Positions 27,248 to 64,000 of a stretch of 64,000 bases of DNA are shown here, piece by piece. The notes under the pieces were generated by a model that did not search any database, was not told where the DNA came from, and saw nothing but the letters and a program-made list of their open reading frames with translations. The stretch is from positions 106,201 to 170,200 of IMG/VR virus record IMGVR_UViG_3300025436_000002; one strand, given 5' to 3'. The DNA is from a virus. Position numbers and translations under genes: made by a program. The first letter of the stretch is position 1; every line of letters starts with the position of its first letter.

Positions 27248-28729
27248 ATGATTAACAGAATTAAAAATTTGATAAACGAGTTGGTTGGGGAAGTTACTCA
27301 ACCTATAGTAAACTCGGAAAACTTTAAAAAATGGTTTGACGATAGTAAAATTGTAGATGAGCATGGAGAACCTTTAGTCGTCTACCATGGTACTAATAAA
27401 AACTTTGTAGAGTTCTCTCATGAAGAGATAGGGAGTGGTTCTGGAAACAGGGGTCATTATGGGGAAGGCTTTTATTTCTCGTATGATATACGAGAAGCTA
27501 AGGGCTACGGTAAGAACTTACTAGAAGCTTATCTTAAAATAACTAACCCTTTTGATGCGGGTAATCCTAAAAACTTTGAAAAGTATGCTGAAGATTACGG
27601 ATTTAAAAAAGAAGATTTAGCTATTAACTTTGGATGGCTTATAAGTAGTATTAGGAAGACTGATAAGGTAGCTCATGAGTTAGCTCTGTTAGTAGATGGA
27701 TACGGATTTGAAAAAGGCTGGGAAGTATTCATAGAAAATCATGATGGAAAAGTTCCAGAATCTAAATTAGACTTAAATGAAGTATCTAACTGGATATCTG
27801 AATATTGTAACTCTGATTCTAAGTGGGCTGTTCCCGACTACATAAAAGAAGAATTAAAAGTACTTGGGGAAACTCCAGTATATGAACAAGGTTACGAAGC
27901 TGGTTCTGAACCAAATCTATTATATATGACTGACTATGGACAATCTGGAAGTATAACTAAAACCCTTAAAGAAGACGGATACGATGGAGTTCTTGCAGGA
28001 AGTGAAGTAGTTGCTTTCTATCCGAATCAAATTAAATCAGTTGATAACAAGGGTACTTTTAATCCTAACTCTAATAGTGTGTATGAAAGTGATGATAAGA
28101 CTGAAACAGATAGTTTCAAGACATGGTTCGACGGAAGTAGGGTTGTAGATGAACAAGGTAATCCTCTAGTTGTTTATCATGGAACTAGTGCATCTTTTGA
28201 TACTTTCTCATTAAAACACTTAGGTATCTCGACTAAGGCATCTTCTGCAAAGCAAGGATTCTTCTTCGCTTCTGATGAAGAAACTGCAAGAGGGTATGCT
28301 AATTTTGCTGGAGAACTAGCAGTCCAAGATCTTATAGATAAAGCGGGAAGGATGGAACGATTAAAGAAATGGGACATGGCTGTCTTATACACTAAAAAGG
28401 CTGAGGACTTAGAAGAGAGTGGCGAACATTTGAAGAACTCTACGGTAATGAAAGCTTATTTAAAACTAGAAAACCCTATCATAATTGATGCTGACGGAGA
28501 GTCTTTTGTGGATTTTGAAGATGAAATTCACAAAGCTATTGAAGACTCTAAACGAAGAGGTAGGGATGGAGTTATCATTAAGAACCTCGTAGACAATGCA
28601 GACTATAGTAGCTCTAGGATAGCTACTCACTATCTAGTATTTTCCCCTAATCAAATTAAATCTGTCAATAATAAAGGTACCTTTAGTTTAGATTCTGATA
28701 ATATATATGAACAAGAGGAGGGGATGTAA
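27248..28729 (+). CDS. Tandem ADP-ribosyltransferase-like (ART-PolyVal-like) domain protein with N-terminal leader
   Basis: Two copies of FK.WF..S..VDE.G.PLVVYHGT...F..FS...GF[YF]F...A.GY...AYLK..NP...DGV...PNQIKSV.NKGTF; leader MINRIKNLINE. Confidence 0.75.
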   Translation: MINRIKNLINELVGEVTQPIVNSENFKKWFDDSKIVDEHGEPLVVYHGTNKNFVEFSHEEIGSGSGNRGHYGEGFYFSYDIREAKGYGKNLLEAYLKITNPFDAGNPKNFEKYAEDYGFKKEDLAINFGWLISSIRKTDKVAHELALLVDGYGFEKGWEVFIENHDGKVPESKLDLNEVSNWISEYCNSDSKWAVPDYIKEELKVLGETPVYEQGYEAGSEPNLLYMTDYGQSGSITKTLKEDGYDGVLAGSEVVAFYPNQIKSVDNKGTFNPNSNSVYESDDKTETDSFKTWFDGSRVVDEQGNPLVVYHGTSASFDTFSLKHLGISTKASSAKQGFFFASDEETARGYANFAGELAVQDLIDKAGRMERLKKWDMAVLYTKKAEDLEESGEHLKNSTVMKAYLKLENPIIIDADGESFVDFEDEIHKAIEDSKRRGRDGVIIKNLVDNADYSSSRIATHYLVFSPNQIKSVNNKGTFSLDSDNIYEQEEGM

Positions 28730-29476
28730 TTGAGTATGAATACAAAATCAAGGTCTTCTACAATAAATTGTGAGGATTTAACGGGTAGGGTATTCCATAT
28801 GTTAAAGGTTGCAGGAATTTATAGTGTGGGTAGTGGCGGAGGAGTAGTTTGGGCTTGTGATTGTACTTGTGGTAATAGAAAAAATATAAGAACTCCTTAC
28901 CTTATTAGTGGGAGTTCTAAGTCTTGTGGCTGTCATAAGAGAAAGACCAATCTAATAGAGGCTTTCGAGGGTCATGCTGAGATAGTAATTAATAGTATTA
29001 AATTTGGAGAAATTCGAGCAATAATAGATCTAGAGGATGTAGCTAAGTGTAAAAATCATACTTGGTGCACTAGTAGCTGTACGGAAGACAAATATGGATT
29101 TTACATAAGAAGTCGGAATACTGAAATGAAGTCGCCCTACCTACACAGATTGGTAATGGGGTCTTCGTCTTCTCATGTGGATCATATTAACCATAATAAG
29201 CTAGATAACCGTAAGTGTAATCTACGTCTAGTAACTGCTGGGGAGAATGCTCAAAATAAGGTGGGTTGTCAATCCAACAATAAAACTAGTGGTATTAAAA
29301 ATATACATTATGATAAAAGTAGACAAAAATGGGGTGTTAGTATATCATTAGAAGGAAATAAAGTATTCTTCAAGAGGTATGATACTCTTGAAGAGGCTAA
29401 ACTAGCTTCTATAGAAGCTAGAAAGAAATTTCATCCTTTTTTTAGTCAGGAGTTTTTAAATGAACCTGAAAATTGA
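28730..29476 (+). CDS. HNH homing endonuclease with AP2 domain
   Basis: DLTG..F..L / W.C.C.CG / SKSCGC; LHRLVM...VDHINHNKLDNRK.NLR; C-terminal AP2-like SG.K.I..DK...KW. Confidence 0.9.
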   Translation: MSMNTKSRSSTINCEDLTGRVFHMLKVAGIYSVGSGGGVVWACDCTCGNRKNIRTPYLISGSSKSCGCHKRKTNLIEAFEGHAEIVINSIKFGEIRAIIDLEDVAKCKNHTWCTSSCTEDKYGFYIRSRNTEMKSPYLHRLVMGSSSSHVDHINHNKLDNRKCNLRLVTAGENAQNKVGCQSNNKTSGIKNIHYDKSRQKWGVSISLEGNKVFFKRYDTLEEAKLASIEARKKFHPFFSQEFLNEPEN

Positions 29477-30245
29477 AAGTGATCTTCACATAGAATTCAA
29501 GAATCATGAGCCTGACTTATCCGACGTGCAAGTATACGTTATTGCAGGAGATTTAGGTCTATTTAAGAATGAAAAAAAATGGCTTATTGATCTAACTAAC
29601 AAGTATCCAAACGTGGAGATGGTTGTGGTTTCAGGCAACCACTCATTCTATGACACTAATATCGAAAAAGTAGATAGAGAATCGAGAGAGCTTTCTAAGC
29701 AATATGAAAGAATACATTATCTTCAAAATGATTCTATAGTTCTTAACGGGTTTAGGTTTATAACTAGCACTTTATGGACCGACTTCAATAAAGGCAATCC
29801 TACTGCGATGTACCTAGCCCAAGCTAGAATGAATGATTATAAACAGATAAGATATCATGGAGGAGCTTCTAGACTTACTCCATATAGAGTCGCTATATTA
29901 CATAAACAATCTAAGGATTATATATTTAAGACCCTCAATACTAGTGAAGAACCTTGCTTTGTCATATCCCACCATCGTCCTTATATAGAAAGAAATCACA
30001 TGACCGATGAGTTATCCCCAGCTTATGAAGTTGATTTACTTAAAGAGCTTGATAAATGTAAAAAACTGCCTATAGCTTGGTTCCACGGACATGATCACGT
30101 CTCAAGCACTAAGATAATAGAGTATGGGCATGGCTCTGTAGAATTTATATCAAATCAAAAAGGGTATCCTAATGAAGAATCTGGTTTTGATCCGAACTTT
30201 ATTTATATTTTAAATGAGGATGTTTTGGGATTAAGTAATGATTAA
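29460..30245 (+). CDS. Calcineurin-like metallophosphoesterase
   Basis: SDLHIE, AGDLG, GNHSFY, TLWTD, HH.P, HGHDH, N.KGY motifs. Confidence 0.9.
   Translation: MNLKIESDLHIEFKNHEPDLSDVQVYVIAGDLGLFKNEKKWLIDLTNKYPNVEMVVVSGNHSFYDTNIEKVDRESRELSKQYERIHYLQNDSIVLNGFRFITSTLWTDFNKGNPTAMYLAQARMNDYKQIRYHGGASRLTPYRVAILHKQSKDYIFKTLNTSEEPCFVISHHRPYIERNHMTDELSPAYEVDLLKELDKCKKLPIAWFHGHDHVSSTKIIEYGHGSVEFISNQKGYPNEESGFDPNFIYILNEDVLGLSND
30202..30212 (+). promoter_or_regulatory. Putative late promoter inside 3' end of phosphoesterase gene
   Basis: TTTATATTTTA 36 nt before 30238. Confidence 0.65.
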
Positions 30246-32175
30246 TAGAATAAATGAACTAATACATAAGTTATGGACTAATGAGAAAGTTACTAGAGCT
30301 CAACTACACGAGATGAGTTTTGGGATAGAACTTGAGATGAAACATGAAGACATGGATATGTCTGATTTTGGAGTAATGAGGAGAGATGATAAGAAATTCT
30401 TCAATTTAACTAAAAATTGGGATATACACCATGATGGTTCTCTAAGTGGAAATGGTACTGAATTTGTATCCCCTCCTATGCCTTTTGAAGAATTTATAGA
30501 AAAAATCCCCCAAGTCATAACTTATCTTAGAGATGAAGGTTTTTATGGTGATGATGAGTGTGGATATCATATAGGAGTTTCGTCCTCTTCTTTAAATCTT
30601 TCTAAAAATATGAGAGACATGTATGAAAAACTTGAAGATGAATATTCTGAGCTAGTTGCTACTATTTTAGCGTATAATTTAAACTCTAAGGGTTTATTCG
30701 CCCTTGGAGACATTGATAGACAGTCTGGGGAGTATACACAAGACTTGGTAGATACTATTCATATAGACAAAGATGAAGTCGGAGATTTTCTAAAAGATGT
30801 TGAAAGGAATGAGCTGACTCTTGGAGATATTATATCTAACTCTGATAGATTTGTACATGGGGTTGCTCATTTTAGACAAAAAGTAGACCAGAATATACAT
30901 CATGTCTCTATGACAAGAAGGGAGGACTATGTAGAATTTAGAGGCTTAGGGGGTAAAAAAGCTTTTGACAGTCTTAGACTTCCAGACTTTGTTAGAAAAC
31001 TCTGTGTTATCTCAGCTTCTCAGGCTTTGGGCAATATTAAAACTGATTATACTGAACGGGAGCTGTATAAAATATTAAAACCTTACATGAAAGGCATACC
31101 CGAAGTAGCCCATATCTTCCAAACACAATCCAAAGAGACTGAAGGAGCTTCTGGACTTTTAGGGATAATTAATTACTTAAAAGATAAACCTAACTTGAGA
31201 AAAACTGCTTCTAGGATGTCCGACATGACTTTTTCTAAGATGTTTAGAGAATACTTAGGAACAGTTAGACCTAATTCTTTAGAGTTCAAAAAGTTGATGG
31301 TGAGATTTCCGATAGATACTATATACATGTTGCTTAGTTATACTAGAGATTTTAAAGATCTGCTAGGTACTATCTCTGGAGATAAATTTCCTTTAGATAA
31401 AATGCTAGAAGTCTTAGATAGAGAAGGATCTTCCGATTCTAGATTATTTGGAAATATCATGGAAGCTCTTACTAAACTAAAAATAGTAACCCTAACGGAT
31501 AAACAACAACTTGATGTGGTTGATAGATTAAAAGGCGTGTCTGGCATACTTAAATACTTACCTAATGTGGGTCTAAATACATTAGTTTATCTCTTTGGTT
31601 CGGATAATGCAAACGATAGGTTTAATGCGTATCAATATCTTGAATTAAATAATAAGTTAAATCTAATTCCTAAGGAAGAGTTGTTAAAATTCTGGGATAC
31701 TCTATACGAAAAGGGACAGTGGCTGTCATTTAGAGATGGGGCTAAGAAAATATTAACTCCTGAGGAATACCTTACCAGATATCCTAAAGCTCTTCAAGAT
31801 AGGCTACTTCTCAGTGAGCCTGATGTTCTTACCTACGTTTTAGACAACTATGACAAATATAAAAACATGGGTCTCCCTTTCACAGGTGTTATAGTTTGGC
31901 TTGCTAATGATGCTTTAAAGGACGAAGTAGCTGAGAAAAATTTTATAAGGCTAACTGTCTTGAAACCAGAGTTATTATCTCAAATAGATTATATAAGTAG
32001 AGAAGTACAACTAGAAATAGTTAAACAAAGACCTGATGCTATATTATCCATAAAATCTCCCTACAAGGCAACTCTGAATAAAGTAAGAGAGCTTGGTGGA
32101 AAAGATGCAGATAAGTGGATTGAGACTGCTGCGACAGACTTTGGGTATAGAGATGTTATGGATGGTTTATTGTAA
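30238..32175 (+). CDS. Putative amidoligase (COOH-NH2 ligase, Amidoligase_2-like) paralogue 1
   Basis: FGIELE, DGSL..GTEFVSPP, CGYHIGVS, YVEFRGLGG; leader MINRINELIHKLWTNE. Confidence 0.8.
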   Translation: MINRINELIHKLWTNEKVTRAQLHEMSFGIELEMKHEDMDMSDFGVMRRDDKKFFNLTKNWDIHHDGSLSGNGTEFVSPPMPFEEFIEKIPQVITYLRDEGFYGDDECGYHIGVSSSSLNLSKNMRDMYEKLEDEYSELVATILAYNLNSKGLFALGDIDRQSGEYTQDLVDTIHIDKDEVGDFLKDVERNELTLGDIISNSDRFVHGVAHFRQKVDQNIHHVSMTRREDYVEFRGLGGKKAFDSLRLPDFVRKLCVISASQALGNIKTDYTERELYKILKPYMKGIPEVAHIFQTQSKETEGASGLLGIINYLKDKPNLRKTASRMSDMTFSKMFREYLGTVRPNSLEFKKLMVRFPIDTIYMLLSYTRDFKDLLGTISGDKFPLDKMLEVLDREGSSDSRLFGNIMEALTKLKIVTLTDKQQLDVVDRLKGVSGILKYLPNVGLNTLVYLFGSDNANDRFNAYQYLELNNKLNLIPKEELLKFWDTLYEKGQWLSFRDGAKKILTPEEYLTRYPKALQDRLLLSEPDVLTYVLDNYDKYKNMGLPFTGVIVWLANDALKDEVAEKNFIRLTVLKPELLSQIDYISREVQLEIVKQRPDAILSIKSPYKATLNKVRELGGKDADKWIETAATDFGYRDVMDGLL

Positions 32176-32924
32176 TGCTAAAAAGAATAAAAGAACTTTT
32201 AAAATTGAATGAAGCTACCCTAGAACAAGTGTTAAGTGTTACAGATAGGGACAGGCTTATTAAAACATGTATAGCAAATCTTGAAGTGAGTGGTGAGAGT
32301 CTTAGTCATTTCTATATGTATATTGATTCGGATACTGCTGAGGAGATAGCTGATGAATTAGGAGATTCCGAAGATGTCCATTCACTAGATGACCTGCTTA
32401 ACAAGTATAGTGATGACGAAGTAGTAAACACGAATGCCTTTAAACAGTTCGTATATACCAATACCGAAGCTAAACTTGATAGTGTAGTAGATGAGTTGGA
32501 GGATACTTTAGATTGGCGTAGAGATCATAGTTTCGTAAATCTGTATAGAGCTATTGGATTTTCTAGCTCTGGTAAATTTAATCGACTTACGGGTGAGCAT
32601 GGGGCTACTAACTTATCTTCTTGGTTAGAACATCTTTACGTCAAAGGTAAGCATGTAGGCATCTTCTGGGCTGATTCTTTTGATAAGGCTAAGGAGTTTG
32701 GAAACTTGAATGTTAGCGGAGATTTCTATATTCTAAAAACCAATGTTGAAAATAGATATATTGATTGGTATGAAACTATAAAACTTAGGATGGATTTAAC
32801 TCTTGGGGAGGAAAACGAGATAAGATTATTCAAAGGAACTCCTTTAACAATAGAAACTATATATGACGAAACTGGGGACGAAATAGATATATCCATATTA
32901 GAAGGGAAGAAACTGTATGCTTAG
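32175..32924 (+). CDS. ADP-ribosyltransferase-like protein with leader
   Basis: LYRAI...HVGIFWADS...EENEIRL (R...ExE pattern); leader MLKRIKELLKLNE. Confidence 0.55.
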   Translation: MLKRIKELLKLNEATLEQVLSVTDRDRLIKTCIANLEVSGESLSHFYMYIDSDTAEEIADELGDSEDVHSLDDLLNKYSDDEVVNTNAFKQFVYTNTEAKLDSVVDELEDTLDWRRDHSFVNLYRAIGFSSSGKFNRLTGEHGATNLSSWLEHLYVKGKHVGIFWADSFDKAKEFGNLNVSGDFYILKTNVENRYIDWYETIKLRMDLTLGEENEIRLFKGTPLTIETIYDETGDEIDISILEGKKLYA

Positions 32925-33291
32925 AAGAATTAAAGAAATACTAGATTACATTAAAGGGGACGTACATAAACAAGATTTAGAAGATATATTTCCCATGGTT
33001 AATAACGTATACTACCTAGATTATAACGGGGACTCTGAGTTTATATATGTACGTAAAGATGATGATACTTTTCATGTGGCTAAACATTTGGGAGGCATGC
33101 AAATGAGGGGAAGACACGGAGAGCTTGTTCCTCATGAAGTAAATGCTGACGAATTACTCTTGACAATACAACAATCTGATGCAAGTTTAGACCCTAGAAA
33201 TGGTGATAGGGAAGTCAGGATACAAGATACTCCCAAAGGTTATGACGTTACTCTTATAGAAATAGATAATGATATCTGGGAGCCTTTGTAG
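32917..33291 (+). CDS. Hypothetical protein with leader
   Basis: Leader MLRRIKEILDY. Confidence 0.7.
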   Translation: MLRRIKEILDYIKGDVHKQDLEDIFPMVNNVYYLDYNGDSEFIYVRKDDDTFHVAKHLGGMQMRGRHGELVPHEVNADELLLTIQQSDASLDPRNGDREVRIQDTPKGYDVTLIEIDNDIWEPL

Positions 33292-33292
33292 T

Positions 33293-33967
33293 ATGCTTAG
33301 AAGAATAAAAGAACTTTTAAAATTAAACGAAAAACAACAGACTCTCGACGGTTTTTGGGAAAATATAGATTGGTATAAGTTTGCTGAATGGACTAAAAGC
33401 AATATACCCGACTATATGTATGAAAACGAGAATCCCTTAGACTCTTTTGCGGAAGCGTATGTGGAAGACCACGATATCGACTTAAACGACTTAGATGATA
33501 ATGAGGATTATCAAAGTTGGTTAACGGGTGAATTAGCTTACGCATTAGAAGAAACTTATAGACTTGTAGATCATGCTGTGGGGAGTTCAAATCCTATATC
33601 TATTTACAGAGCTCTTAGAATATCAGGAGACTACTTAGAACATCTTAAAAACCAAGGTAAACATTTAGGTATCTACTGGACATGGGAAGAAAGTCTTGCT
33701 ACTGACTATGAAGGCTCCGAGTCAAGTAGGAATAGCTCTGGTGACTTCTACTTAATTGAGACGGAAGTCCCTCAGACCAATATAAATTGGAGAAATACCC
33801 TACTACAGAATTTTGTATCCCAAGGGGAGAGTGAAATTCAGTTATATAAAGGAGTCCCAATCAAAATTAAACGGATGTGGAAAGCTCCTAATAACTTAAC
33901 TGCTGTACCCAATAGGAAGGAATTAGAAGTTCCTGAAGAGATTAAGAATAAAGTATTTTTTGCCTAA
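33293..33967 (+). CDS. ADP-ribosyltransferase-like protein with leader (paralogue of 32175)
   Basis: IYRAL...HLGIYWTW...GESEIQLYKG; leader MLRRIKELLKLNE at ATG 33293. Confidence 0.55.
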   Translation: MLRRIKELLKLNEKQQTLDGFWENIDWYKFAEWTKSNIPDYMYENENPLDSFAEAYVEDHDIDLNDLDDNEDYQSWLTGELAYALEETYRLVDHAVGSSNPISIYRALRISGDYLEHLKNQGKHLGIYWTWEESLATDYEGSESSRNSSGDFYLIETEVPQTNINWRNTLLQNFVSQGESEIQLYKGVPIKIKRMWKAPNNLTAVPNRKELEVPEEIKNKVFFA

Positions 33968-34005: not shown

Positions 34006-34210
34006 ATTGGAGACGTTTTCTTAAGTTCTCGGTAGGAGGTAGCTACCATTAAGAGAGCAGAAGCGTTTCGGGATAAAATTAAGAAGAACGGTCACTATTC
34101 GCACCACTACCGACTGTATCTTGTATAAATACCTGATGTACCTTGTAGGGGCTGGCTGTCCTACTACATCCGCCTAGGGGCTAAAGAGAGGTTGTGCGAC
34201 CTCTCTTTTT
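34006..34210 (+). ncRNA. Putative structured small RNA of unknown family
   Basis: Bounded by promoter and terminator; no ORF of 60 aa or more; GC-richer than flanks; several complementary segments. Confidence 0.6.
34183..34210 (+). terminator. Intrinsic terminator
   Basis: aaagagaggt-loop-acctctcttttt. Confidence 0.85.
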
Positions 34211-35088: not shown

Positions 35089-35099
35089 TTTATATTTTA
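35089..35099 (+). promoter_or_regulatory. Putative late promoter TTTATATTHTA
   Basis: ctagtttatattttaaatagga, identical to the site at 43048. Confidence 0.7.
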
Positions 35100-35128: not shown

Positions 35129-35752
35129 ATGGATAGGGCACTAGGTAGGATTAAAAAGCTATGCGAGGATCTATCCTCTGATTTGGCTAACCATTATTTA
35201 TGGTATCGAAGTGTAGATCGAATCCCTAAGGACATTTACAGCTACATTATAGGTGCTGCTAGGAGTTTAACTTATGATATGATAGACGAACCCGAAGTAG
35301 CTGAAATATTAAAAAATGATGAGAGTCTTAGGGCTGTAAAGCTCATGGATTATCCTTTTAAGATAAAAAAAGAAAATACAGGTATGCAGAATTTTGGATA
35401 CGGTATCTACTTTGCCAGTAATTACAAGTGGGCTAGTCGGTATGGAAGTTTTACTTTCGTATCTCGAGTTATGCCTAAAGAGATAGCCGTAATAAAAGAC
35501 TTTCAATCCGAATGGGTTAAACTTTCTGGAGGATTAGGTACAGACATTGCTAACTACTTTCAAGAGATGGGAATTGACCTCCATAGTGAACAAGCTCCTT
35601 TATTTCCTAAACTTATTAAGAAGTTCGCAGGTAAGGATAAAAAAGCGTTACTAGTTAATAACTCATCTGACAGTATTGATGCACAACTTTGTGTATACAA
35701 TACGAGTGCGATATATACTAAATATCTTATATATAAAAACGGAGACTTATAA
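35129..35752 (+). CDS. ADP-ribosyltransferase-like protein with leader
   Basis: WYRSV...FGYGIYFASN...ASRYG...QLCVYN; leader LGRIKKLCE. Confidence 0.55.
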   Translation: MDRALGRIKKLCEDLSSDLANHYLWYRSVDRIPKDIYSYIIGAARSLTYDMIDEPEVAEILKNDESLRAVKLMDYPFKIKKENTGMQNFGYGIYFASNYKWASRYGSFTFVSRVMPKEIAVIKDFQSEWVKLSGGLGTDIANYFQEMGIDLHSEQAPLFPKLIKKFAGKDKKALLVNNSSDSIDAQLCVYNTSAIYTKYLIYKNGDL

Positions 35753-36264
35753 TGGAGGATAATTTCGTGGGACTTAATGACTTAAAAAGATTATTAAACA
35801 AAAGTAAAATAAATGAAGCTTCAACACTCAAAGTCTCTTTCAATTTAACAGACTTAGAAAATGTGGTATTAAAATTTGAAACAGGGGTTCTTCCAGTCGA
35901 ACGTCTTATAGAATTTCTAAGAAAAGAAATGGACGAAGCTCTCGAGAAAAGACAAGTCAAGGATAACCATAAGACAAGAGAAGATCAAAAGTTGGCTGAG
36001 GGCATGAAAACACATGCTCGTATTCTTTTTGCAGATGCTTTTGAAACTTTAGGATATGATGCAAATGACTCTTCCATAGTTAGTATGGTTGAGAATTTAA
36101 CCATACACTTTATAAAATTAAAAGTTAAATATAAAGATGCCGATGATACTACTACTGCAACTTCTGCTATTGAGGCAACATGGCATGCATCCTCAAATGA
36201 GTGGAGAGAAGTCTTAGATAGACTTAAAGCTACATTCGAGGGTGAGGTTACTAATGTTGAATAG
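35752..36264 (+). CDS. Hypothetical protein with leader
   Basis: Leader LNDLKRLLNKSKINE. Confidence 0.7.
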   Translation: MEDNFVGLNDLKRLLNKSKINEASTLKVSFNLTDLENVVLKFETGVLPVERLIEFLRKEMDEALEKRQVKDNHKTREDQKLAEGMKTHARILFADAFETLGYDANDSSIVSMVENLTIHFIKLKVKYKDADDTTTATSAIEATWHASSNEWREVLDRLKATFEGEVTNVE

Positions 36265-37178: not shown

Positions 37179-37189
37179 TTTATATTTTA
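37179..37189 (+). promoter_or_regulatory. Putative late promoter TTTATATTHTA
   Basis: TTTATATTTTA 39 nt before 37218. Confidence 0.7.
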
Positions 37190-37217: not shown

Positions 37218-39743
37218 ATGCCTTTAGGTAATATAAAAAGATTTTTAAATAAAATTGGTAATATAAACGAAGTTCTTCCAAAAAAAGAAATGGCTCCGAT
37301 ACTTAAAAGTATCAAACTTGGTACTGAACTTGAAGTAATCCATGAAGGTGAAGAGCTTACTATAGAAGATTGGGTTGGTACTTTTCAGAATATGGAAGCT
37401 GGTGAGTCTGAATCTGTCGATAAGTATTCTGACATGAAAGATTATATGGAGCAAACCTATAATATATATAATTCCAGTAGGGTGGCTTCTAGGGCTAATG
37501 ATGAATGGGTTGTTCTAAAAGATTTTGGAAGTGAGCATGTTCATAGGAATGATGTAGTGTCATCATGGTACATTAGCCTTAATATAGAAGAGGGTAGGGG
37601 GAATCAATCTACAAGTAGTAGTATGAAACTGTATAACGATAAAACTAACTCTCTATATAAACTTAGAGATGGCTGGGCTAAAGTATTTGAAGACCCTAAA
37701 AATGAACACACTCTTTTAAGTCTTAACGATGTCATACACATGGAACATGGGGACCTTGATAAGATACTTGACTGGATAGAAGAGAATGTTACTAGCAAGT
37801 TCGATGAATTAGAGTATGATACTGTATTTGAAGAAGTGACTCTAGACGATGTACAAGATTACGAAAGTGAAGATGACGACGAATATCCAGAAGCTGACGA
37901 AGATATTGAAGATTTTCTCAGATATCTCGAAAATAATGGAGGAGTTAATGTCTCAGGTAGCTATCATGGTGCGGTATCTTCAAGTGGTTGGAGAATTGAA
38001 CCTGACAGTTCGTTGGGACATTATGGTATTGAAGTTATATCCCCACCCATGGAATATAAAAAGTTTATTCAGTTAGTTCCTAAGGTAATAGAAAGACTTA
38101 AAGATTTAGGATACGGAGCAACCTCTCTCTGCGGTTATCATATAGGTGTATCTTCTGACGAATTTAACATTTCTGAAGTTATAAGAGATAACTTCTATCA
38201 TTTCAGACATGAGGGTTGGAGTTCCTTAGTATCCGCTGTACTTGCAATGGGTCAAGAGTCTAAAGGTCTATTCTCTAAGGGAGATCCTAATAGATCAACT
38301 GGAAACTGGTCTGAAGATATCATGTCTCACTTACGAGGTGTTCACAAAGAGAGTACAACTGTTGACGATATTCTATATACAGATAAAATTAACATGAAGG
38401 ATTACATTAATAGTGTATTCTCTAAGAGTAGCCCTACTCATGCTAAAAACGTATCTTTAAGAAAAGATTATGTAGAGCTACGCTCTCTCGGAGGAACTAG
38501 TGGTTTTGAGTCCTTAAGCTCTTTATCCTCTCTTAAAGATATTGTCAACATAGCTATATCCCAGTTATTCCAAAAACCTAAAGATTATTCTAAGAGAGAG
38601 GTTTTAAAAATAATGAGACCTTACCTAGATAAACTTCTAGGTGAAGACGAGGAGGATGCTAAAGTAGAAAGTATGCTAGAGCTACTCAAACAACCTGATC
38701 CTTGGGAAAATAGAAAGATAATAAAACTTTGTAAGAAATACCCTAAAAAATATCTACAACCCGTCTTCAATTACATAAGAAAGAACTTTCAAGCTTCTAA
38801 TGTCATGAGCTTCCTATACTGGGTAACAAATAGATGGGATAATATAGATGACTACGAAGATGAGAGAGTTATAAAAAACTTCTTACAAGACAAGCTGGAA
38901 TTTATCATGAGTAATGTATCCTCAGATACTCCTAAAGCTAACTTATCCATTTTTAACTTCCTAACGTCAAATCTAGTAGTTAGTGGTAAAATTGAATCTC
39001 AGATATTGGAAAATCTAGTATCTTACATAGAAACTGCCAGAAATTCATGGGATGTGGCAGACGCCTGTGTGGTATTAAGAAACCTACCTATTATGTACAA
39101 ACCTGAAGGAGATAAAATATTTTCAGACCTAGTGGGTGATTATAGTTTCCCAATAAAAGCTAAGTTATACCTCATATCTTCTGATGAACATGGAAGACTT
39201 GAGAAATTAGGAGAAGGTCGAGCGAGTGTATTACTTGCAGAGATGCGACGTAACCTAGAACAAATTCATGCTACCTCCGTGTTTGATTACCCTAGAGATA
39301 CTAAAGCCATCTTACAAAGACTGCTATCCAATTTTGATAGTTGGAATACTGATATCTTATCAGATATATTGGTACTATCTGAAGAGTTTAATTTACAAGA
39401 TAGTATAGTTTCCCTAGTAGATAGCTTACCTAACTTAGAAAATGCCTTATCCAAACTAATGGACATTGACCAATCTAACAAGGAGAGAATTTTTGCTGTA
39501 TTTTTCAAACACTACTATGGAGGAGCTAATCAAGATATCATAGAAAAATATAAAGATATATTCCATACTGATCTTTATAAAGATGCAATCAAGAATCCGA
39601 GGGAAGTTGCTAGTATGGGACCTTTGCAGGTAGGGGATATGACTAACTACGGAAAGATTAAAGATATGTATGGGACTGGGAATTCAGTATCTTATTTAAT
39701 AGACGGTCAAATATATCATCATTCTAAAGTCCAAAGAATATGA
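37218..39743 (+). CDS. Putative amidoligase paralogue 2
   Basis: LGTELE, WRIEPDSSL..GIEVISPP, CGYHIGVS, YVELRSLGG; leader MPLGNIKRFLNKIGNINE. Confidence 0.8.
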   Translation: MPLGNIKRFLNKIGNINEVLPKKEMAPILKSIKLGTELEVIHEGEELTIEDWVGTFQNMEAGESESVDKYSDMKDYMEQTYNIYNSSRVASRANDEWVVLKDFGSEHVHRNDVVSSWYISLNIEEGRGNQSTSSSMKLYNDKTNSLYKLRDGWAKVFEDPKNEHTLLSLNDVIHMEHGDLDKILDWIEENVTSKFDELEYDTVFEEVTLDDVQDYESEDDDEYPEADEDIEDFLRYLENNGGVNVSGSYHGAVSSSGWRIEPDSSLGHYGIEVISPPMEYKKFIQLVPKVIERLKDLGYGATSLCGYHIGVSSDEFNISEVIRDNFYHFRHEGWSSLVSAVLAMGQESKGLFSKGDPNRSTGNWSEDIMSHLRGVHKESTTVDDILYTDKINMKDYINSVFSKSSPTHAKNVSLRKDYVELRSLGGTSGFESLSSLSSLKDIVNIAISQLFQKPKDYSKREVLKIMRPYLDKLLGEDEEDAKVESMLELLKQPDPWENRKIIKLCKKYPKKYLQPVFNYIRKNFQASNVMSFLYWVTNRWDNIDDYEDERVIKNFLQDKLEFIMSNVSSDTPKANLSIFNFLTSNLVVSGKIESQILENLVSYIETARNSWDVADACVVLRNLPIMYKPEGDKIFSDLVGDYSFPIKAKLYLISSDEHGRLEKLGEGRASVLLAEMRRNLEQIHATSVFDYPRDTKAILQRLLSNFDSWNTDILSDILVLSEEFNLQDSIVSLVDSLPNLENALSKLMDIDQSNKERIFAVFFKHYYGGANQDIIEKYKDIFHTDLYKDAIKNPREVASMGPLQVGDMTNYGKIKDMYGTGNSVSYLIDGQIYHHSKVQRI

Positions 39744-40299: not shown

Positions 40300-40310
40300 T
40301 TTATATTATA
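40300..40310 (+). promoter_or_regulatory. Putative late promoter TTTATATTHTA
   Basis: TTTATATTATA 32 nt before patatin. Confidence 0.7.
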
Positions 40311-40331
40311 AATAATGTAGGAGGGATTTTT

Positions 40332-43047: not shown

Positions 43048-43058
43048 TTTATATTTTA
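43048..43058 (+). promoter_or_regulatory. Putative late promoter TTTATATTHTA
   Basis: TTTATATTTTA 42 nt before 43090. Confidence 0.7.
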
Positions 43059-50250: not shown

Positions 50251-50922
50251 ATGGGGAACTATAAGAAGAAACCCGTAAAAAAGTCTGCAAAATCCATAAA
50301 GAAACAGTTGAAAGAGTATGCTATCAAAGCTAGGGTAGCCTGTGCGTACTGTGGAAATCATTATTCTGAGAAAAGAAAGATGAGTGTAGATCACGTAGTT
50401 CCTAAATCTTCTGAGGGGATAGCTTCTCTTGATAATCTTATCATCGCCTGTACTTTTTGTAACAGTGGGAAGAAGTGTAGTCTTCCTATGGGAGAATTTT
50501 TAGAGTTAAATCCTAAAGCTAAGGTTTTCTTAGGCAGGTACCTTGAGAAGATGAAGAAATGTGTTATAAACGGTAAAAATTATTTTAAAGAAATATCATG
50601 GGTACTTGACCCTCTTTATATTCTAAATGAGGATATAAAAAGAGAGGTGGATTCCATGAGTCTAGGTAAACTTAAAAAGATAATAAAAGAAAATAAAGAA
50701 CCTAGTGATGAAATTCAGGAGTATTTGGATAAGCTAGGATTTAGACACTATTCTGAGGATGAAGTAAAACCTGATCCAGAACAATTAGCCATGGGTATTA
50801 AAGTTGAAATGGAGCATACTACAAATAAAGAAGTGGCTAAACTTATAGCACTAGCTCATCTTTCGGAGATTCCCCTTTATTATACTTATCTTAAAAAAAT
50901 GGAATCTGAACATGGTGGTTAG
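50251..50922 (+). CDS. HNH endonuclease read in frame into a DUF5661-like domain
   Basis: CAYCG..SVDHVVPKS..G...NL..AC..CNS.K; C-terminal QL.MGIKVEMEHT....A..IA.AHL.E.P.YY..L. Confidence 0.8.
   Translation: MGNYKKKPVKKSAKSIKKQLKEYAIKARVACAYCGNHYSEKRKMSVDHVVPKSSEGIASLDNLIIACTFCNSGKKCSLPMGEFLELNPKAKVFLGRYLEKMKKCVINGKNYFKEISWVLDPLYILNEDIKREVDSMSLGKLKKIIKENKEPSDEIQEYLDKLGFRHYSEDEVKPDPEQLAMGIKVEMEHTTNKEVAKLIALAHLSEIPLYYTYLKKMESEHGG
50615..50625 (+). promoter_or_regulatory. Putative late promoter inside HNH ORF
   Basis: TTTATATTCTA 41 nt before in-frame ATG 50656 with GAGGTG RBS. Confidence 0.65.
50656..50922 (+). CDS. Nested late gene: DUF5661-like protein with leader
   Basis: Own promoter motif and RBS; leader MSLGKLKKIIKE. 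Confidence 0.6.
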   Translation: MSLGKLKKIIKENKEPSDEIQEYLDKLGFRHYSEDEVKPDPEQLAMGIKVEMEHTTNKEVAKLIALAHLSEIPLYYTYLKKMESEHGG

Positions 50923-57986: not shown

Positions 57987-58044
57987 CAATAACTTAGTAA
58001 ATAAGGATTAGCATGTTGACATTAGCTTGTTTATATGCTAATCT
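57982..58044 (+). promoter_or_regulatory. sigma70-like promoter with TGTAA box
   Basis: TGTAA-N8-TAGTA at 57982; TTGACA(58016)-N17-TAATCT; IR gattagcat/atgctaatc. Confidence 0.7.
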
Positions 58045-58076
58045 TTATTTGTAGGGTAAATTTAAAGGAGACACAC

Positions 58077-59309
58077 ATGGCTTCCGATTTAAAACAATTG
58101 CAACGTAAGGTATTTTTAGCTCAGAGTAAGCTTATGCATAAAGAGTTTTGTTTCTTTGGATGTTTGAGTCTTTGGCTGAAGTATCGTATTGACGATTCCA
58201 TTGAAACGGCTGCTACTAATGGGAGTGAGATAATATTCAATTCTGAATTCCTTGATAAAATGAACATGGGAGAATTAAAATGGGTTATGGCTCACGAAAT
58301 TATGCATATTGCATTGGGTCATATTAGAAGAAAAGGTACAAGAGATCACATGGTTTTCAACTATGCAAGTGATTTCGCCATACACTCTATTCTTAAAGAA
58401 TTTGAAGCTGATACATTCAAGATGCCTGAGGGTTGTTTATATGATAAAAAGTATGACGGCATGTGTTCCGAAGCTATTTATAATGACATAGCCCAACAAA
58501 TTAGTGAAGGCAAGGGCAAAGCTATGAAAACATTAGATGACCATGGTCAATGGGGCAAGGATCCTGCCAAAGGTCAAGGTGATCCAGATGATAAAGATGG
58601 TGAAGGCTGTGAGATGGGTGAAGTCTCTGAGGACGAGTGGAAACAAAGGATGGAAGATGCAGCAAAGTTAGCTGCTGGAAAGATGGAGGGGAAAACTCCT
58701 TCATTCCTTAAGGATTTATTAGCTAATCTTCAACCTCCTAAAAAGGATTGGAGACAGTTGCTCTCTGAATTTATCCAACCTGAGGTAGCAGACTACTCTT
58801 TTAACCCTCCAGATAAGAGATTATATTCCATGTCTGAATGCCTGCTACCTGATTTTAATGATGAAGAAGAGACTGTTAAAAATATAGCATTCTTTATAGA
58901 TATCTCAGGATCTATGAGTGAGCAAGATATTTCAGATGCGTATTCTGAAATTGTGGGAGCTATCAATCAATTTGGATCCATGAGTGGGTATTTGGGATAC
59001 TTCGATACAGCTATACACAACTTTGAAAAATTTGAGGATGTCAAGGATGTTATAAAAAATAAACCTCATTCTGGAGGAGGAACTGACTTCGAAGCATGTT
59101 TTAGATTTCTTAAAGATACCGATGTCGTAGACATGCAGGGTATCGTTGGAATTGTTATTTTATCCGATGGGGAGTGTGGGTTTGGAAATTCATATAAACT
59201 TTCTGAGGGAATTCCCACTCTTTTCTTGTTTACCGATGATCATATTCCTAAAGCACCTTTCGGTACCACATCTTATCTAAGATATAGGAAGAGCCTGAAC
59301 TCACATTAA
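58077..59309 (+). CDS. DUF2201-like metallopeptidase + vWA domain protein
   Basis: TAATNG, HEIMH zincin motif, N.A.D.AI; MIDAS DISGSM, GGGTDF, LSDGE. Confidence 0.9.
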   Translation: MASDLKQLQRKVFLAQSKLMHKEFCFFGCLSLWLKYRIDDSIETAATNGSEIIFNSEFLDKMNMGELKWVMAHEIMHIALGHIRRKGTRDHMVFNYASDFAIHSILKEFEADTFKMPEGCLYDKKYDGMCSEAIYNDIAQQISEGKGKAMKTLDDHGQWGKDPAKGQGDPDDKDGEGCEMGEVSEDEWKQRMEDAAKLAAGKMEGKTPSFLKDLLANLQPPKKDWRQLLSEFIQPEVADYSFNPPDKRLYSMSECLLPDFNDEEETVKNIAFFIDISGSMSEQDISDAYSEIVGAINQFGSMSGYLGYFDTAIHNFEKFEDVKDVIKNKPHSGGGTDFEACFRFLKDTDVVDMQGIVGIVILSDGECGFGNSYKLSEGIPTLFLFTDDHIPKAPFGTTSYLRYRKSLNSH

Positions 59310-59327
59310 ATTAAGAGAGGTCTAGTA

Positions 59328-60194
59328 TTGTCTAATAAAGTAGGAATATATCAAATACGGAATACTATAAACGGGAAGGTTTATGTAGGAAGTTCAATAC
59401 GCATGAATCATAGAAAATACGAGCATTTCTGTGACCTCAATAAGGGGAAACATCATAGTATTAAACTCCAGAGGGCTTACAATAAGTATGGGAAAGATAG
59501 TTTTATATTTGAAGTTATAGAATGTATCCAACTAACTGAGGACTTGGGTATCAACTCAAAATTAATAACGGCTAGGGAGCAATTTTACATAGATTCTAAA
59601 AATTCATATACACTTGGTTACAACAGTAGACCTCTAGCTGAAACTAACTTAGGATGTAAACGCTCGGAGGATGTAAAAAGAAAAATGAGTATATCCTTCA
59701 GAGGGTCTCTTAATCCTAACTTCGGTAAAACAATGCCTGACAATATTAAAAAGAGGATAAGTGATGCCAAAATGGGTAGAAAAAATCCACATACTTCAGA
59801 ACAAGATAGACGAATAGGAGAATCTAATCCTAATAAGAGAAAAGTTATAAATTTAACAACTTTGGAAGTATACGTTAGTGTATCTAAAGCTTCTTCTGAA
59901 ACAGGTGTTGATAGAGTTAGTCTTTATAGATGTTGTCAAGGTAAGTACGGGAGTGCTGGAGATTTTATATGGGCTTACTATAATGAAAGTATAAGCTATT
60001 CCAAGATACTTCCCTCTCCCGTTTCCACTAGACCTAAAAAAGTTATTAATTTGACCAAGGGCATTATATACGAAAGTTTAAATCAAGCTTCCTTGGATGT
60101 AGGTTCATCATGTTCATGTATTAGGAGATGTTGTAAAGGTAAACGTAAAACTTCTGGCGGATTTGAGTGGGCTTACTATACAGAAAAAGTTTAA
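59328..60194 (+). CDS. GIY-YIG homing endonuclease with NUMOD repeats
   Basis: GIYQIRN..NGKVYVGSS; NPNFGK; two NUMOD1-like C-terminal repeats. Confidence 0.9.
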   Translation: MSNKVGIYQIRNTINGKVYVGSSIRMNHRKYEHFCDLNKGKHHSIKLQRAYNKYGKDSFIFEVIECIQLTEDLGINSKLITAREQFYIDSKNSYTLGYNSRPLAETNLGCKRSEDVKRKMSISFRGSLNPNFGKTMPDNIKKRISDAKMGRKNPHTSEQDRRIGESNPNKRKVINLTTLEVYVSVSKASSETGVDRVSLYRCCQGKYGSAGDFIWAYYNESISYSKILPSPVSTRPKKVINLTKGIIYESLNQASLDVGSSCSCIRRCCKGKRKTSGGFEWAYYTEKV

Positions 60195-60227
60195 ATTCAC
60201 ATTAGTTTACAATTGAGAATCCAAGTA

Positions 60228-60256
60228 TTGACTTATTAAAAATAATCTGCTATTCT
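60228..60256 (+). promoter_or_regulatory. sigma70-like promoter
   Basis: TTGACT-N17-TATTCT with TG extension, then GTAAGGTT. Confidence 0.7.
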
Positions 60257-60317
60257 AATTAGGTAAGGTTTTAAAAAAAGTTTAAGTTTAATTATTATGT
60301 AGAAAAAGGGGAAAAAC

Positions 60318-61394
60318 ATGGCTAACATTTCAAGTAAAATCAGGGTTAATGAATTAATTAATTTAATGGCAGACTATTGTACTTCTGCTACATCACCTAA
60401 GGATGTTGAACCAATAATGCTTTGGGGATCTCCAGGGGTAGGGAAGTCTCAAGCCATGAAGCAAGTAGGAGAAACTTTAGAGAAAAGGCTAGGTAAGAAA
60501 GTAAAAGTTACTGACATAAGACTTGTAAATTACAGTCCAGTAGATTTGAGAGGTATCCCAGTTCCGAATGATGACAAAACTTTAGCAATATGGTTAAAAC
60601 CTTTGGTATTCCAAATGGATGACAGTCCTGATGTTATAAATATCCTAATCCTAGATGAAATATCAGCAGCTGCTCCAAGCATTCAAGCGTCTGCTTATCA
60701 AATAGTCCTAGATAGAAGACTCGGAGAACACTTAATTCCAGACAACTGTTTAATAATGTGTGCAGGTAATAGAGTCACAGATAAGTCAGTAGCTTACAAG
60801 ATGTCTAAAGCGTTAGGAAATAGACTTGTCCACTTAGACGTATCCGTAGATTTCGATGACTGGAAAACATGGGCACTTCCTAGAGGATTTGACAGTAGGA
60901 TTATGGGATTCTTAAACTGGAGGCAAGGTGCCGACCTCCACAAGTTTGACCCTTCCAATGATGAAAATTCTTTTTGTACTCCTAGAACATGGGAGAAGGT
61001 TAACAGTATCCTGAGTGTCTTGGATTTAGAACGAGCCATGAGTCTCATTTCAGGTACTATCGGAGACAGTACAGCTCATGAGTTTTACACGTATACTCGA
61101 TTGTATGGAGAGCTTCCGAATATGGAAACAATCTTAGCAGGGAAGTGTACTAAAGTTCCTACAAAACCTGATGTAAGTTTTGCATTAGTCTCCGCCTTAG
61201 TATGTCAAGCGTTAAAATCTAATGATGTTCAATTAACAAATATCCTAGAATACTCTTTCAAACTCAAAGATGAATTCAAAATATTACTACTCAAGGATTT
61301 AATAAAGTCATCTAAGGACATGTTACTTAAAATAGTTAATCATCCTAAATTTGAGAAATTTACAGAAGAGAATATGGACTTGTTGAGGGATTAA
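60318..61394 (+). CDS. MoxR-like AAA+ ATPase
   Basis: Walker A GSPGVGKS, DLRGIP, Walker B LILDE, AGNR, AL.NR, TPRTW. Confidence 0.92.
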   Translation: MANISSKIRVNELINLMADYCTSATSPKDVEPIMLWGSPGVGKSQAMKQVGETLEKRLGKKVKVTDIRLVNYSPVDLRGIPVPNDDKTLAIWLKPLVFQMDDSPDVINILILDEISAAAPSIQASAYQIVLDRRLGEHLIPDNCLIMCAGNRVTDKSVAYKMSKALGNRLVHLDVSVDFDDWKTWALPRGFDSRIMGFLNWRQGADLHKFDPSNDENSFCTPRTWEKVNSILSVLDLERAMSLISGTIGDSTAHEFYTYTRLYGELPNMETILAGKCTKVPTKPDVSFALVSALVCQALKSNDVQLTNILEYSFKLKDEFKILLLKDLIKSSKDMLLKIVNHPKFEKFTEENMDLLRD

Positions 61395-61602: not shown

Positions 61603-61610
61603 GAGCAGAC

Positions 61611-62200: not shown

Positions 62201-62202
62201 CA

Positions 62203-62634: not shown

Positions 62635-62635
62635 C

Positions 62636-63004
62636 ATGATTATAAATTTAGAAAAAAATACAATTTTTGTAACGAATAAAGAACAGAAGCCTTGTGTTAG
62701 AGCGTCTCTTAACTTTGAAAAGATGGTTGACCCTACTGAGTTTAATAGTGAAGTTGTGATAGCTCCAGTGTACTCTATATACGTATACGGTATCGATGAT
62801 ACTGATGAAATTAAAGCTTTGTATAAGGAGTACTATAAACAAGTTGTAGCTCTCATGTCTGTACTTTATACAGGACCTGTCTATTACATAAATACTTTTG
62901 AATCTGGAGAAGTAATTAACTGTTTAACAGACTCTATTATAGAGACAGGTAAATCTCCTGTTAAAGTTCCGCATAAGACTGCCCTTAAGATATATAGGGG
63001 TTAA
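62636..63004 (+). CDS. Hypothetical protein
   Basis: Clean ORF. Confidence 0.65.
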   Translation: MIINLEKNTIFVTNKEQKPCVRASLNFEKMVDPTEFNSEVVIAPVYSIYVYGIDDTDEIKALYKEYYKQVVALMSVLYTGPVYYINTFESGEVINCLTDSIIETGKSPVKVPHKTALKIYRG

Positions 63005-63024
63005 CTCTTTTCTTCATAATTTTT

Positions 63025-63053
63025 TAGAGGCTTTTTAAGCCTCTATTTTTTTT
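63025..63053 (+). terminator. Intrinsic terminator
   Basis: tagaggct-loop-agcctcta + T run. Confidence 0.8.
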
Positions 63054-63057
63054 AATT

Positions 63058-63068
63058 TTTATATTATA
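63058..63068 (+). promoter_or_regulatory. Putative late promoter TTTATATTHTA
   Basis: TTTATATTATA 61 nt before 63119. Confidence 0.7.
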
Positions 63069-63118
63069 TTTAGCGTTACTTCCTTGTGGGGGTAACTATA
63101 ATTTAAGGAGATTAAATA

Positions 63119-63436
63119 ATGGCATATTCATGGACAGCTGTAACACCGAATACTCAAACTTGGGGATCAAGCTACTTTAATTTCTGTATTACGGGGGATG
63201 TGAGATCTCAAATACCTGCACATTCTATTGTCAAGATGCAGGGAGGTTCTGGGACAGAGTACACTGTAACTGCTACTTTTGAATCTATGTTTGGGGATAC
63301 AACATGGGTACGTAGTGATGATAACCAAGAAATAGACCCCGTAGATCGAGCTCTCTACGGAGGGGGTACTTTGTTAGTAAGAGGTGCTGAGATTCCGTCA
63401 ATCATACCTAGGATAGTAAACTTCTGGACTATATAG
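63119..63436 (+). CDS. Putative virion protein with C-terminal PSIIPRIVNFWTI motif
   Basis: AAGGAG RBS; tail shared with the 17234 locus. Confidence 0.7.
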   Translation: MAYSWTAVTPNTQTWGSSYFNFCITGDVRSQIPAHSIVKMQGGSGTEYTVTATFESMFGDTTWVRSDDNQEIDPVDRALYGGGTLLVRGAEIPSIIPRIVNFWTI

Positions 63437-63447
63437 TAAGGAGGGTA

Positions 63448-64000
63448 ATGATGTTACCTAATATAAATAGACTAATTCATGAGATAAAAGGGATTGAGTA
63501 TCATAAGGTACTCAATCCTAAACTCTGGAATAATTTCATATTAAAGAAAGAGGTTAGAGATAAGTTATTAGAAATAGCTGATCTCTTTATAGGTTTCTTA
63601 GATGTAGACTTAGACAAACATGATGTTTCAGATATAGTCTTTACTGGTTCCTCGGCTAACTTTAACTATACAAAGTATTCAGATGTTGATTTACACGTTA
63701 TAGTCGATTATGACAGAATACATAAAAATTGTCCTATTGTTGGAGAATTCTTAGATGCTAAGAAGTCGCTATTTAATAAAAAACATGAGTTATCTTTATT
63801 TGGACACCCTGTTGAGGTATATGTAGAAGATTTAGACAATCCTGCAACGTCTAGCGGAGTATATTCAATACTTAAAGACACTTGGGTAACTAAACCTACC
63901 TATGCAAATATAAAGATTGACGATCGTTCTGTGCAAGCTAAATACAACCATCTAAAAAGTATAATAATTGACATTATTAAAAATGATGACAACTTAGACG
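63448..64000 (+). CDS. Phage nucleotidyltransferase (Pol-beta superfamily), truncated by window end
   Basis: Manual translation MMLPNINRLIHE...LNPKLW...DIVFTGSSANFNYTKYSDVDLHVIVD...PVEVYVED; not in ORF track because it has no stop in the window. Confidence 0.85.
   Translation, partial: MMLPNINRLIHEIKGIEYHKVLNPKLWNNFILKKEVRDKLLEIADLFIGFLDVDLDKHDVSDIVFTGSSANFNYTKYSDVDLHVIVDYDRIHKNCPIVGEFLDAKKSLFNKKHELSLFGHPVEVYVEDLDNPATSSGVYSILKDTWVTKPTYANIKIDDRSVQAKYNHLKSIIIDIIKNDDNLD

Follow-up and report, generated by a model that had tools for sequence, protein, structure and literature searches.

In phage T4, the ADP-ribosyltransferase (ART) Alt and the internal proteins are loaded by an N-terminal sequence of 7-20 residues which is then removed by gp21; in IPII and IPIII this sequence is MKTYQEFIAE, and the first 10 residues suffice (PMC5694885, PMC3012670, PMC9026906). 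The loading of diverse proteins by one conserved tag is established for the T-even phages (PMC3012670, PMC9026906). In the giant phages phiKZ, 201phi2-1 and SPN3US, many head-internal proteins are cut after Glu by a gp21-related protease (PMC5694885). Polyvalent proteins of phages and conjugative elements have been predicted to be packaged and injected; a shared N-terminal leader is not described in that paper, in which the word 'leader' occurs 0 times (PMC5512222). Here we consider a 64,000-nucleotide stretch of viral DNA (positions 106,201 to 170,200 of IMG/VR record IMGVR_UViG_3300025436_000002, hereafter the window), in which 13 proteins, including five amidoligases, begin with a common short N-terminal segment, the leader. 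We judge this leader likely, with a probability of roughly 70%, to be a T4-type capsid-targeting propeptide. It probably loads enzymes into the capsid, because it ends in the cutting motif of a T4-type head protease on more than 20 otherwise unrelated late proteins.

The whole record is one contig of 170,200 bp, with a G+C content of 34% and nearly every gene on the + strand, and the window is its final 64 kb. Coordinates below are those of the window unless marked 'genome'. The leader consensus in this phage is M-[IL]-x-[RK]-I-[KN]-x-L-...-[LI]-N-E, and the leader genes of the window are as follows.

27248-28729, + strand: leader protein 1, 493 aa; leader M-I-N-R-I-K-N-L-I-N-E, then two tandem ART-PolyVal domains
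30238-32175, + strand: leader protein 2, 645 aa, Amidoligase_2 (PF12224, 28.5 bits against a cut-off of 22); leader end ...W-T-N-E
32175-32924, + strand: leader protein 3, 249 aa, no assigned function, paralogue of 33293; leader end K-L-N-E
32917-33291, + strand: leader protein 4, 124 aa, no assigned function; leader core present, N-E end absent
33293-33967, + strand: leader protein 5, 224 aa, no assigned function, paralogue of 32175
35129-35752, + strand: leader protein 6, 207 aa, probable PARP-like ART fold; leader end L-C-E
35752-36264, + strand: leader protein 7, 170 aa (165 aa from the GTG at 35767), no assigned function; leader end K-I-N-E
37218-39743, + strand: leader protein 8, 841 aa, Amidoligase_2; leader end N-I-N-E
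43090-45633, + strand: leader protein 9, 847 aa, amidoligase paralogue (BLASTP E 6e-46 to 37218)
45637-47385, + strand: leader protein 10, 582 aa, Amidoligase_2; leader end L-L-N-E
47387-48955, + strand: leader protein 11, 522 aa, Amidoligase_2; leader end L-L-N-E
50656-50922, + strand: leader protein 12, 88 aa, DUF5661 (PF18905), from an internal start; leader end I-I-K-E
63448-63999, + strand: leader protein 13, NTP_transf_2 nucleotidyltransferase, truncated by the end of the window and contig; leader end L-I-H-E

A sequence-only reading of the window had described basic amphipathic leaders on these 13 proteins, all in units behind a late-type motif. All 13 N-termini do read as it gave them, four with a qualification. 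The start of 33293 is an internal ATG of an open reading frame (ORF) that opens at 33269, one base past the stop of the upstream gene. The leader of 35752 begins only at residue 8, and the GTG at 35767, which has its own GGAGGA site and would give the usual leader form, may be the true start. The start of 50656 is likewise an internal ATG, at residue 136 of the HNH ORF 50251-50922, and it is preceded by a ribosome-binding site and, at a distance of 41 nt, by a late motif. DUF5661 homologues, several of which have a leader too, are encoded as separate proteins of 57-147 aa, and the internal starts of 33293 and 50656 are both well supported. That HNH endonuclease ORF reads in frame into DUF5661 with no stop between them, and Y-I-L-N-E lies 9 residues ahead of the internal Met. 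The nucleotidyltransferase at 63448 opens with two Met codons, and across the contig junction its frame reaches a stop at ~203 aa. Most leaders end in [LIV]-N-E or [LI]-x-E, with a few atypical endings (32917, 35129), and the leader of 43090 holds two candidate cut sites, I-L-N-E (residue 11) and S-I-N-E (residue 20). As for the amphipathic and basic character, the helical hydrophobic moment lies within the top 10% of shuffles for 17 of 22 leaders, and net charge ranges from -1 to +3 (the sole -1 leader is that at genome 27916), so the leader is basic only mildly. A signal peptide was ruled out, the leaders being charged.

The leader is found well beyond the window. It was found on at least 21 proteins, which belong to about 18 homology groups; at least eight of these proteins are encoded outside the window, including those at genome 3865, 5114, 5989, 27916, 28968, 35186 and 105418, all in late units. 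A core pattern derived from the 13 leaders, [RKN][IL][KRN]x[LIFM][LIMCSF], was matched in the first 20 residues 11 times in the region of the original observation (1.0 expected) and, independently of that observation, 10 times in the remaining genome (2.2 expected, p = 9e-5). The ending [LIVM]-N-E at residues 6-30 was found 18 times against 5.2 expected (p = 8e-6). An unbiased all-against-all comparison of N-terminal windows gave 161 pairs against 76-111 in controls that are inflated by paralogue families, a moderate excess in which the leader proteins are the top-ranked nodes. The proteins behind the leaders are largely unrelated. Once the first 25 residues are cut off, the 13 proteins of the window sort into eight unrelated groups (the five amidoligase paralogues, the pair 32175/33293 and six singletons), each of ten compared leader proteins outside the window is a singleton, and all 23 together form about 18 unrelated groups.

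The leader genes share not only an N-terminus but also a putative promoter type. A late motif, TTTATATT[ATC]TA (TTTATATTHTA), has 34 copies on the + strand against a single one on the - strand; 18 copies lie in the structural region, ahead of portal, core, capsid, sheath and baseplate genes; it also precedes tail genes. Six leader genes of the window begin 36-42 nt past such a motif, and the remaining seven follow further down in units that a motif opens; the sequence-only reading had already placed all 13 in units behind the motif. The motifs concerned, and one hairpin, are listed here.

27212-27222, + strand: late motif TTTATATTCTA, 36 nt before the ART gene start at 27248
30202-30212, + strand: late motif within the end of the upstream gene, 36 nt before 30238
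35089-35099, + strand: late motif, 40 nt before 35129
37179-37189, + strand: late motif, 39 nt before 37218
43048-43058, + strand: late motif, 42 nt before 43090
50615-50625, + strand: late motif inside the HNH ORF, 41 nt before the internal start at 50656
63058-63068, + strand: late motif match opening the unit 63119-63999
34183-34208, + strand: strong intrinsic-terminator-like hairpin closing the late unit 27248-33967

Because this motif is common to portal, core, capsid and tail genes and shows a 34:1 strand bias, the cargo genes appear to be expressed late, together with the head genes. Between 27000 and 50000 of the window, the late units are interleaved with short units behind sigma-70-like promoters (33971, 34238, 36280, 39753), which encode small leaderless proteins. 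A patatin-like phospholipase gene in the same region (PF01734, E 9e-25; 40300-41255) has its own late motif and lacks the leader; a role of its product in lysis is conceivable, as is its entry into the virion by a different path.

The near-constant spacing of 36-42 nt between promoter and start would also be expected if a cassette of promoter, ribosome-binding site and first codons had been copied ahead of new genes by gene shuffling, the encoded peptide having no sorting function. The leader DNA of 32175 and 33293 is almost identical, as such copying would leave it. However, when residues identical between leaders were compared, the same codon was used in 265 of 503 cases against 206 expected, and because of this we regard the leader as conserved as a peptide and not as a DNA repeat: identical codons are somewhat in excess, yet nearly half of the identical residues are encoded by differing codons. 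Furthermore, M1, I5, N15 and E16 are invariant in the five amidoligase paralogues, the N-E end thus being kept among proteins of just 26-31% identity, and seven of the leader genes lie inside operons with no promoter of their own. Related phages retain the leader despite sequence drift, and homologous enzymes of unrelated phages bear different leaders of the same build. We therefore consider copying of a cassette an improbable source of the pattern.

Selection on translation initiation is a second possibility that would leave the peptide without a role. Highly expressed late genes of an AT-rich genome may favour initial codons that are A-rich and free of structure, and such codons would encode N-termini rich in Lys, Ile and Asn. 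The base composition of this genome, the abundance of AAA, AAT, ATA and ATT codons in the leaders and the slight excess of identical codons all fit with this. Nevertheless, the late proteins that are most highly expressed (capsid, portal, sheath and tube) are leaderless, the helical spacing of residues in the leaders exceeds that of shuffles of the same composition, the specific hydrophobic-N-E end is conserved, and the same build is found in GC-richer phages (contig L022). Of the explanations weighed here we give this one the least credence, and regard it as very improbable.

A capsid-targeting propeptide calls for a prohead protease to remove it, and the sequence-only reading had proposed both a search for one and a scan of the whole genome for further leaders. 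Both succeeded: besides the additional leaders given above, a gp21/S77-type protease gene was found within a T4-type head module, outside the window, with the following features.

genome 10545-14525: large terminase with inteins, 1326 codons; Hint/intein domains and HNH or LAGLIDADG-type homing endonuclease domains
genome 14563-16338: T4-type portal (PF07230)
genome 16536-17225: very acidic protein, 224 residues, 90 of them Asp or Glu
genome 17235-17933: leader protein adjoining the protease, M-I-K-N-I-K-R-L-M-E-Y-L-V-S-E
genome 17937-19331: prohead protease, 464 aa (Peptidase_S77, PF03420, E 6e-9; phrog_207, E 1.7e-26)
genome 19413-20828: major capsid protein (phrog_138)

When the protease is aligned to T4 gp21 (5JBL), His90 and Ser149, both invariant in relatives, match the two positions that are Ala in that chain. 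From the offset we take these to be residues 85 and 140, the T4 gp21 catalytic pair mutated for crystallisation. The cutting motif recurs within the head proteins themselves: the N-terminal region of the protease holds Y-L-N-E at residues 24-27, and in the major capsid protein M-V-N-E ends exactly at residue 65. The propeptide lost by T4 gp23 in maturation is 65 residues long (PMC9026906). Capsid proteins of relatives have M-V-S-E or M-L-E at the same position, with the conserved mature start directly after it, and the hydrophobic-N-E motif thus appears to mark the maturation site of the capsid protein. Leaders are borne by several head-module proteins (genome 17235 beside the protease, 27916, 28968 and 35186) and are absent from the capsid, portal, sheath and tube proteins as well as from the tail and baseplate proteins of the genome.

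This distribution bears on a further alternative, in which the leader is a sorting or docking helix for another destination (the cell membrane, the tail or baseplate, or a shared chaperone or partner) and the Glu-ending motif is coincidental. An amphipathic helix suits membrane binding or protein docking equally well, and detection of a protein in virions, as described below for phage Atu_ph07, cannot separate head from tail. Against this, leader proteins encoded outside the window are concentrated in the head module, next to the protease gene and in the interval from portal to capsid, the leader ending matches both the boundary site of the capsid propeptide and the protease's own N-terminus, and the proteins of the tail and baseplate lack leaders. 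The charge of the helix is also too high for a signal peptide or membrane anchor. Another destination is, to our mind, unlikely, though it is the strongest of the alternatives.

Other observations concern the head module itself. The C-terminal half of the protease is a coiled coil of ~270 residues with many hydrophobic-x-E sites, which points to a fusion of protease and scaffold; a gp22-like scaffold gene on its own was not recognised. The terminase apparently carries two inteins, and several free-standing homing endonucleases interrupt the module. The leader protein beside the protease (genome 17235-17933), a single gene here, corresponds to two leader-bearing genes in related phages. A system based on a phage nucleus or a virion RNA polymerase was ruled out, as the head module is of T4 type and no such genes were seen in the annotated parts.

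The relatives found are metagenome contigs of up to 190 kb whose capsid proteins are 74-77% identical (contigs Ga0209727_1000031 and Ga0209417_1000206) and more distant ones at 38-39%. Orthologous head-module proteins in both groups keep leaders of the same build while the sequence drifts, with ends such as ...R-I-I-C-E|G-G-G, ...N-I-I-N-E|Q and ...I-I-E-E-L-D-E|G, and ...L-R-L-V-N-E|S in a distant relative (the bar marks the candidate cut). No close cultured relative was found by megablast of the amidoligase region or by tblastn of 43090, both of which came back empty. Scans of IMG/VR with the protease and with the amidoligase alignment returned zero relatives, a word-indexed protein search with 37218 matched the query alone, and the portal is at most 32% identical to those of Rhizobium T4-like phages.

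Homologues of the cargo enzymes provide a wider view. An exhaustive search with the amidoligase 30238 gave 116 matches. In 69 of these homologues the first catalytic strand is close to the N-terminus. A hydrophobic-x-E at residues 5-26, with the conserved mature start immediately after it, is present in 48 of the 69, and the 21 exceptions coincide with the homologues that have next to no extension at the N-terminus. Several of the leaders are very similar to T4 MKTYQEFIAE, e.g. M-K-F-Y-H-Y-L-T-E|K. In ART-PolyVal homologues of 27248, the common domain from about residue 24 is preceded by differing short segments, many of which end in L-N-E, and in three other viral contigs the ART and unrelated neighbouring genes have a common leader of their own (M-K-I-K-L-L-K-Q-M-I-M-E in L014, M-K-I-S-x-L-L-x-E in L039). 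Some homologues are modules of giant proteins: one, 2288 aa long, has SLT and LysM domains besides Amidoligase_2, and ART homologues of 2000-4700 aa are numerous. The amidoligase family is also present in the cultured jumbo phages Atu_ph07 and RsoM2USA.

For Atu_ph07, a virion proteome has been published, and we calibrated its gene numbers on portal gp198, protease gp204 and capsid protein gp215, by which AUZ94978 is gp196. This protein is an Amidoligase_2 (Pfam 5e-7) of 500 residues, consistent with 57.94 kDa, encoded two genes upstream of the portal; hhalign gave a 95% probability to the amidoligase profile of the window, over the catalytic core only. In the Atu_ph07 virion proteome it is represented by 14 unique peptides that cover 30.2% of its sequence (PMC6102473, Supplementary Table S5). 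The 57.9-kDa gp196 was most abundant in gel band 2 together with proteins of 117-137 kDa, well above its expected size (PMC6102473, Supplementary Table S5). Head-region proteins that were likewise detected in the virions (gp199, gp200, gp205, gp206 and gp213) have leaders such as ...H-I-I-N-E|E, ...N-I-I-N-E|S and ...L-L-I-N-E|D, and the N-termini of gp200, gp206 and gp213 end in ...I-N-E.

The cargo had been read from the letters as five amidoligases, four ART-like enzymes and a nucleotidyltransferase. The amidoligases and the nucleotidyltransferase hold up, while the ART-like enzymes are reduced to one that is firm (27248) and one that is probable (35129). Amidoligase_2 enzymes are glutamine-synthetase-like carboxylate-amine ligases. 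Four of the five (30238, 37218, 45637 and 47387) score 25-31 bits against PF12224, where the cut-off is 22; 43090 reaches only 15.8 bits, yet is a clear paralogue by BLASTP, and a conserved core is visible in the alignment of all five. The ART at 27248 matches PF18760 with E 4.7e-47 in two domains, the conserved domain starting at about residue 24, behind the leader. The linker between its two domains follows ...S-V-Y-E, and single-domain homologues terminate at the equivalent ...I-Y-E; the head protease might therefore cut the tandem protein into two ARTs. Protein 35129 is a probable PARP-like ADP-ribosyltransferase: its PARP match lies below the cut-off (E 0.034), its structural neighbours are PARP and ART-PolyVal proteins (TM ~0.5), and hhalign finds a 21-column motif with G-x-G-I-Y-F-A. 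For 32175 and 33293, no ART profile match reached the gathering score. The single-sequence AlphaFold models of 35129 and 32175 have a pLDDT of just 33 and 34. The nucleotidyltransferase at 63448 scores 24.6 bits against PF01909 (cut-off 21, E 3.3e-5). Each leader protein has a single recognisable domain type, 27248 having the same domain twice.

Taken as a capsid-targeting propeptide, which is how the sequence-only reading saw it, the leader is supported by the protease gene, the residue-65 motif of the capsid protein, the leaders in the head module, the shared promoter motif, the leaders of homologues and the Atu_ph07 proteome. The proteins would be synthesised late, from the promoter type common to head and tail genes, and the amphipathic, mildly basic helix of 10-20 residues would dock each of them on the scaffolding core of the prohead, which may include the very acidic protein and the leader-bearing protein encoded between portal and protease. 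Once the shell has closed, the gp21/S77-type protease would cut after the Glu of a hydrophobic-x-Glu motif, mostly [LIV]-N-E; the leader would be removed and the mature enzymes would stay inside the capsid. At the next infection they would exit with the DNA and act immediately on host targets. The predicted cargo comprises the five Amidoligase_2 paralogues, the double ART-PolyVal protein, the probable PARP-like ART, the nucleotidyltransferase, DUF5661 and several unassigned proteins. Docking, cleavage, retention in the head, ejection and the targets of the enzymes are steps that we infer, and injection and action 'before transcription', as the sequence-only reading worded it, are extrapolated from T4.

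Several points weigh against the leader being a capsid-targeting propeptide. The phage is uncultured and known here from its sequence alone, and the leader has no sequence similarity to that of T4; only length, build and ending are alike. The clean N-E end is absent from 32917, 35129 (L-C-E) and 50656 (I-K-E), and the core pattern gives false positives, one match being a homing endonuclease. A 90-aa protein at genome 99031-99303 has a strong leader (M-I-N-K-I-R-E-L-I-...-S-L-E) but its neighbours are small genes of early type, and a strict late motif is missing from its vicinity. Ribonucleotide reductase, a RecA-like protein and an ssDNA-binding protein, all likely contaminants, are also in the list of Atu_ph07 virion proteins (PMC6102473); presence in that list is therefore not proof of a position inside the head and is silent on cleavage and ejection.

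Two features at the edge of the subject should be added. At 58035-61394 lies a cluster encoding a DUF2201 metallopeptidase/VWA protein, a GIY-YIG-like ORF and a MoxR-type AAA ATPase, and the N-terminus of the ATPase (...I-R-V-N-E) is weakly leader-like. The frame of the nucleotidyltransferase runs on over the contig ends (window 63448-63999, genome 1-101), with its stop ~20 codons later, just 5' of the ribosome-binding site of the first gene. Because this frame crosses the contig junction, the contig looks closed circular or permuted, though it has no terminal repeat.

The recurrence of amidoligases leads to a broader proposal. We did not find amidoligases described in the searchable literature as a recurrent class that is leader-tagged and probably packaged. 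It is conceivable, though we would advance it only tentatively and with the odds somewhat against it, that Amidoligase_2 enzymes are widespread and unrecognised capsid-packaged, injected effectors, which in many T4-core phages would bear capsid-targeting leaders particular to each lineage and of which one, gp196 of Atu_ph07, is already listed in a virion proteome. The five diverged paralogues of this phage would enter with its DNA and, seconds into the infection, attach amino acids or peptides to proteins or nucleic acids of the host; the whole set would amount to an unbundled polyvalent system in which every module has its own address. If the capsid-targeting reading of the leader is true, a rule readable from sequence (a short shared helix, a head-protease ending and a late promoter) would reveal the arsenal of injected proteins of uncultured T4-core phages. 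Enzymes without a known role in infection, above all the amidoligases, would gain a time and a place, being delivered with the DNA before phage gene expression. The targets of amidoligases would become experimentally approachable, and the prediction made for polyvalent proteins would acquire a defined route of loading. As is already done with the T4 sequence, the leader might also be used to tag proteins for packaging when related phages are engineered.

Compared with the T4 capsid-targeting sequence and Alt, the likeness lies in a short N-terminal segment on unrelated proteins with a hydrophobic-x-Glu end and late expression signals, in a gp21-family (S77) protease gene beside portal and capsid genes, in the capsid protein motif at residue 65, and in an ADP-ribosyltransferase among the cargo, like Alt. 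In contrast to T4, the leader of this phage is often longer (11-20 residues) and sometimes has two candidate sites, the cargo consists of at least 20 proteins, many of them enzymes of 500-850 aa, where T4 has three small basic proteins and Alt, the ART belongs to the ART-PolyVal clade and not to the Alt/Mod clade, and the protease has its long coiled-coil C-terminal half.

Atu_ph07 shares with this phage the T4-core head genes, an Amidoligase_2 protein (gp196) encoded near the portal and N-termini of the form ...I-I-N-E or ...L-I-N-E on head-module proteins, but it is a 490-kb phage and distant kin, whose paper did not mention leaders or processing (PMC6102473). With the giant phages the common ground is that propeptides have been proposed to target proteins into the prohead and that the N-termini of paralogues are conserved (PMC5694885); their propeptides, however, are mostly longer than 100 residues, with the cut motif S/A/G-x-E or A-x-E, whereas leaders of T4 length and a T4-type head module are found here. 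The polyvalent proteins draw on the same families (ART-PolyVal, Amidoligase_2, nucleotidyltransferase), but combine 2-15 disparate effector domains in each polypeptide (PMC5512222), an architecture that is not seen in this phage, where separate genes have leaders of their own. The mechanism of tag-based capsid loading is thus a known one, and what is unusual here is the cargo.

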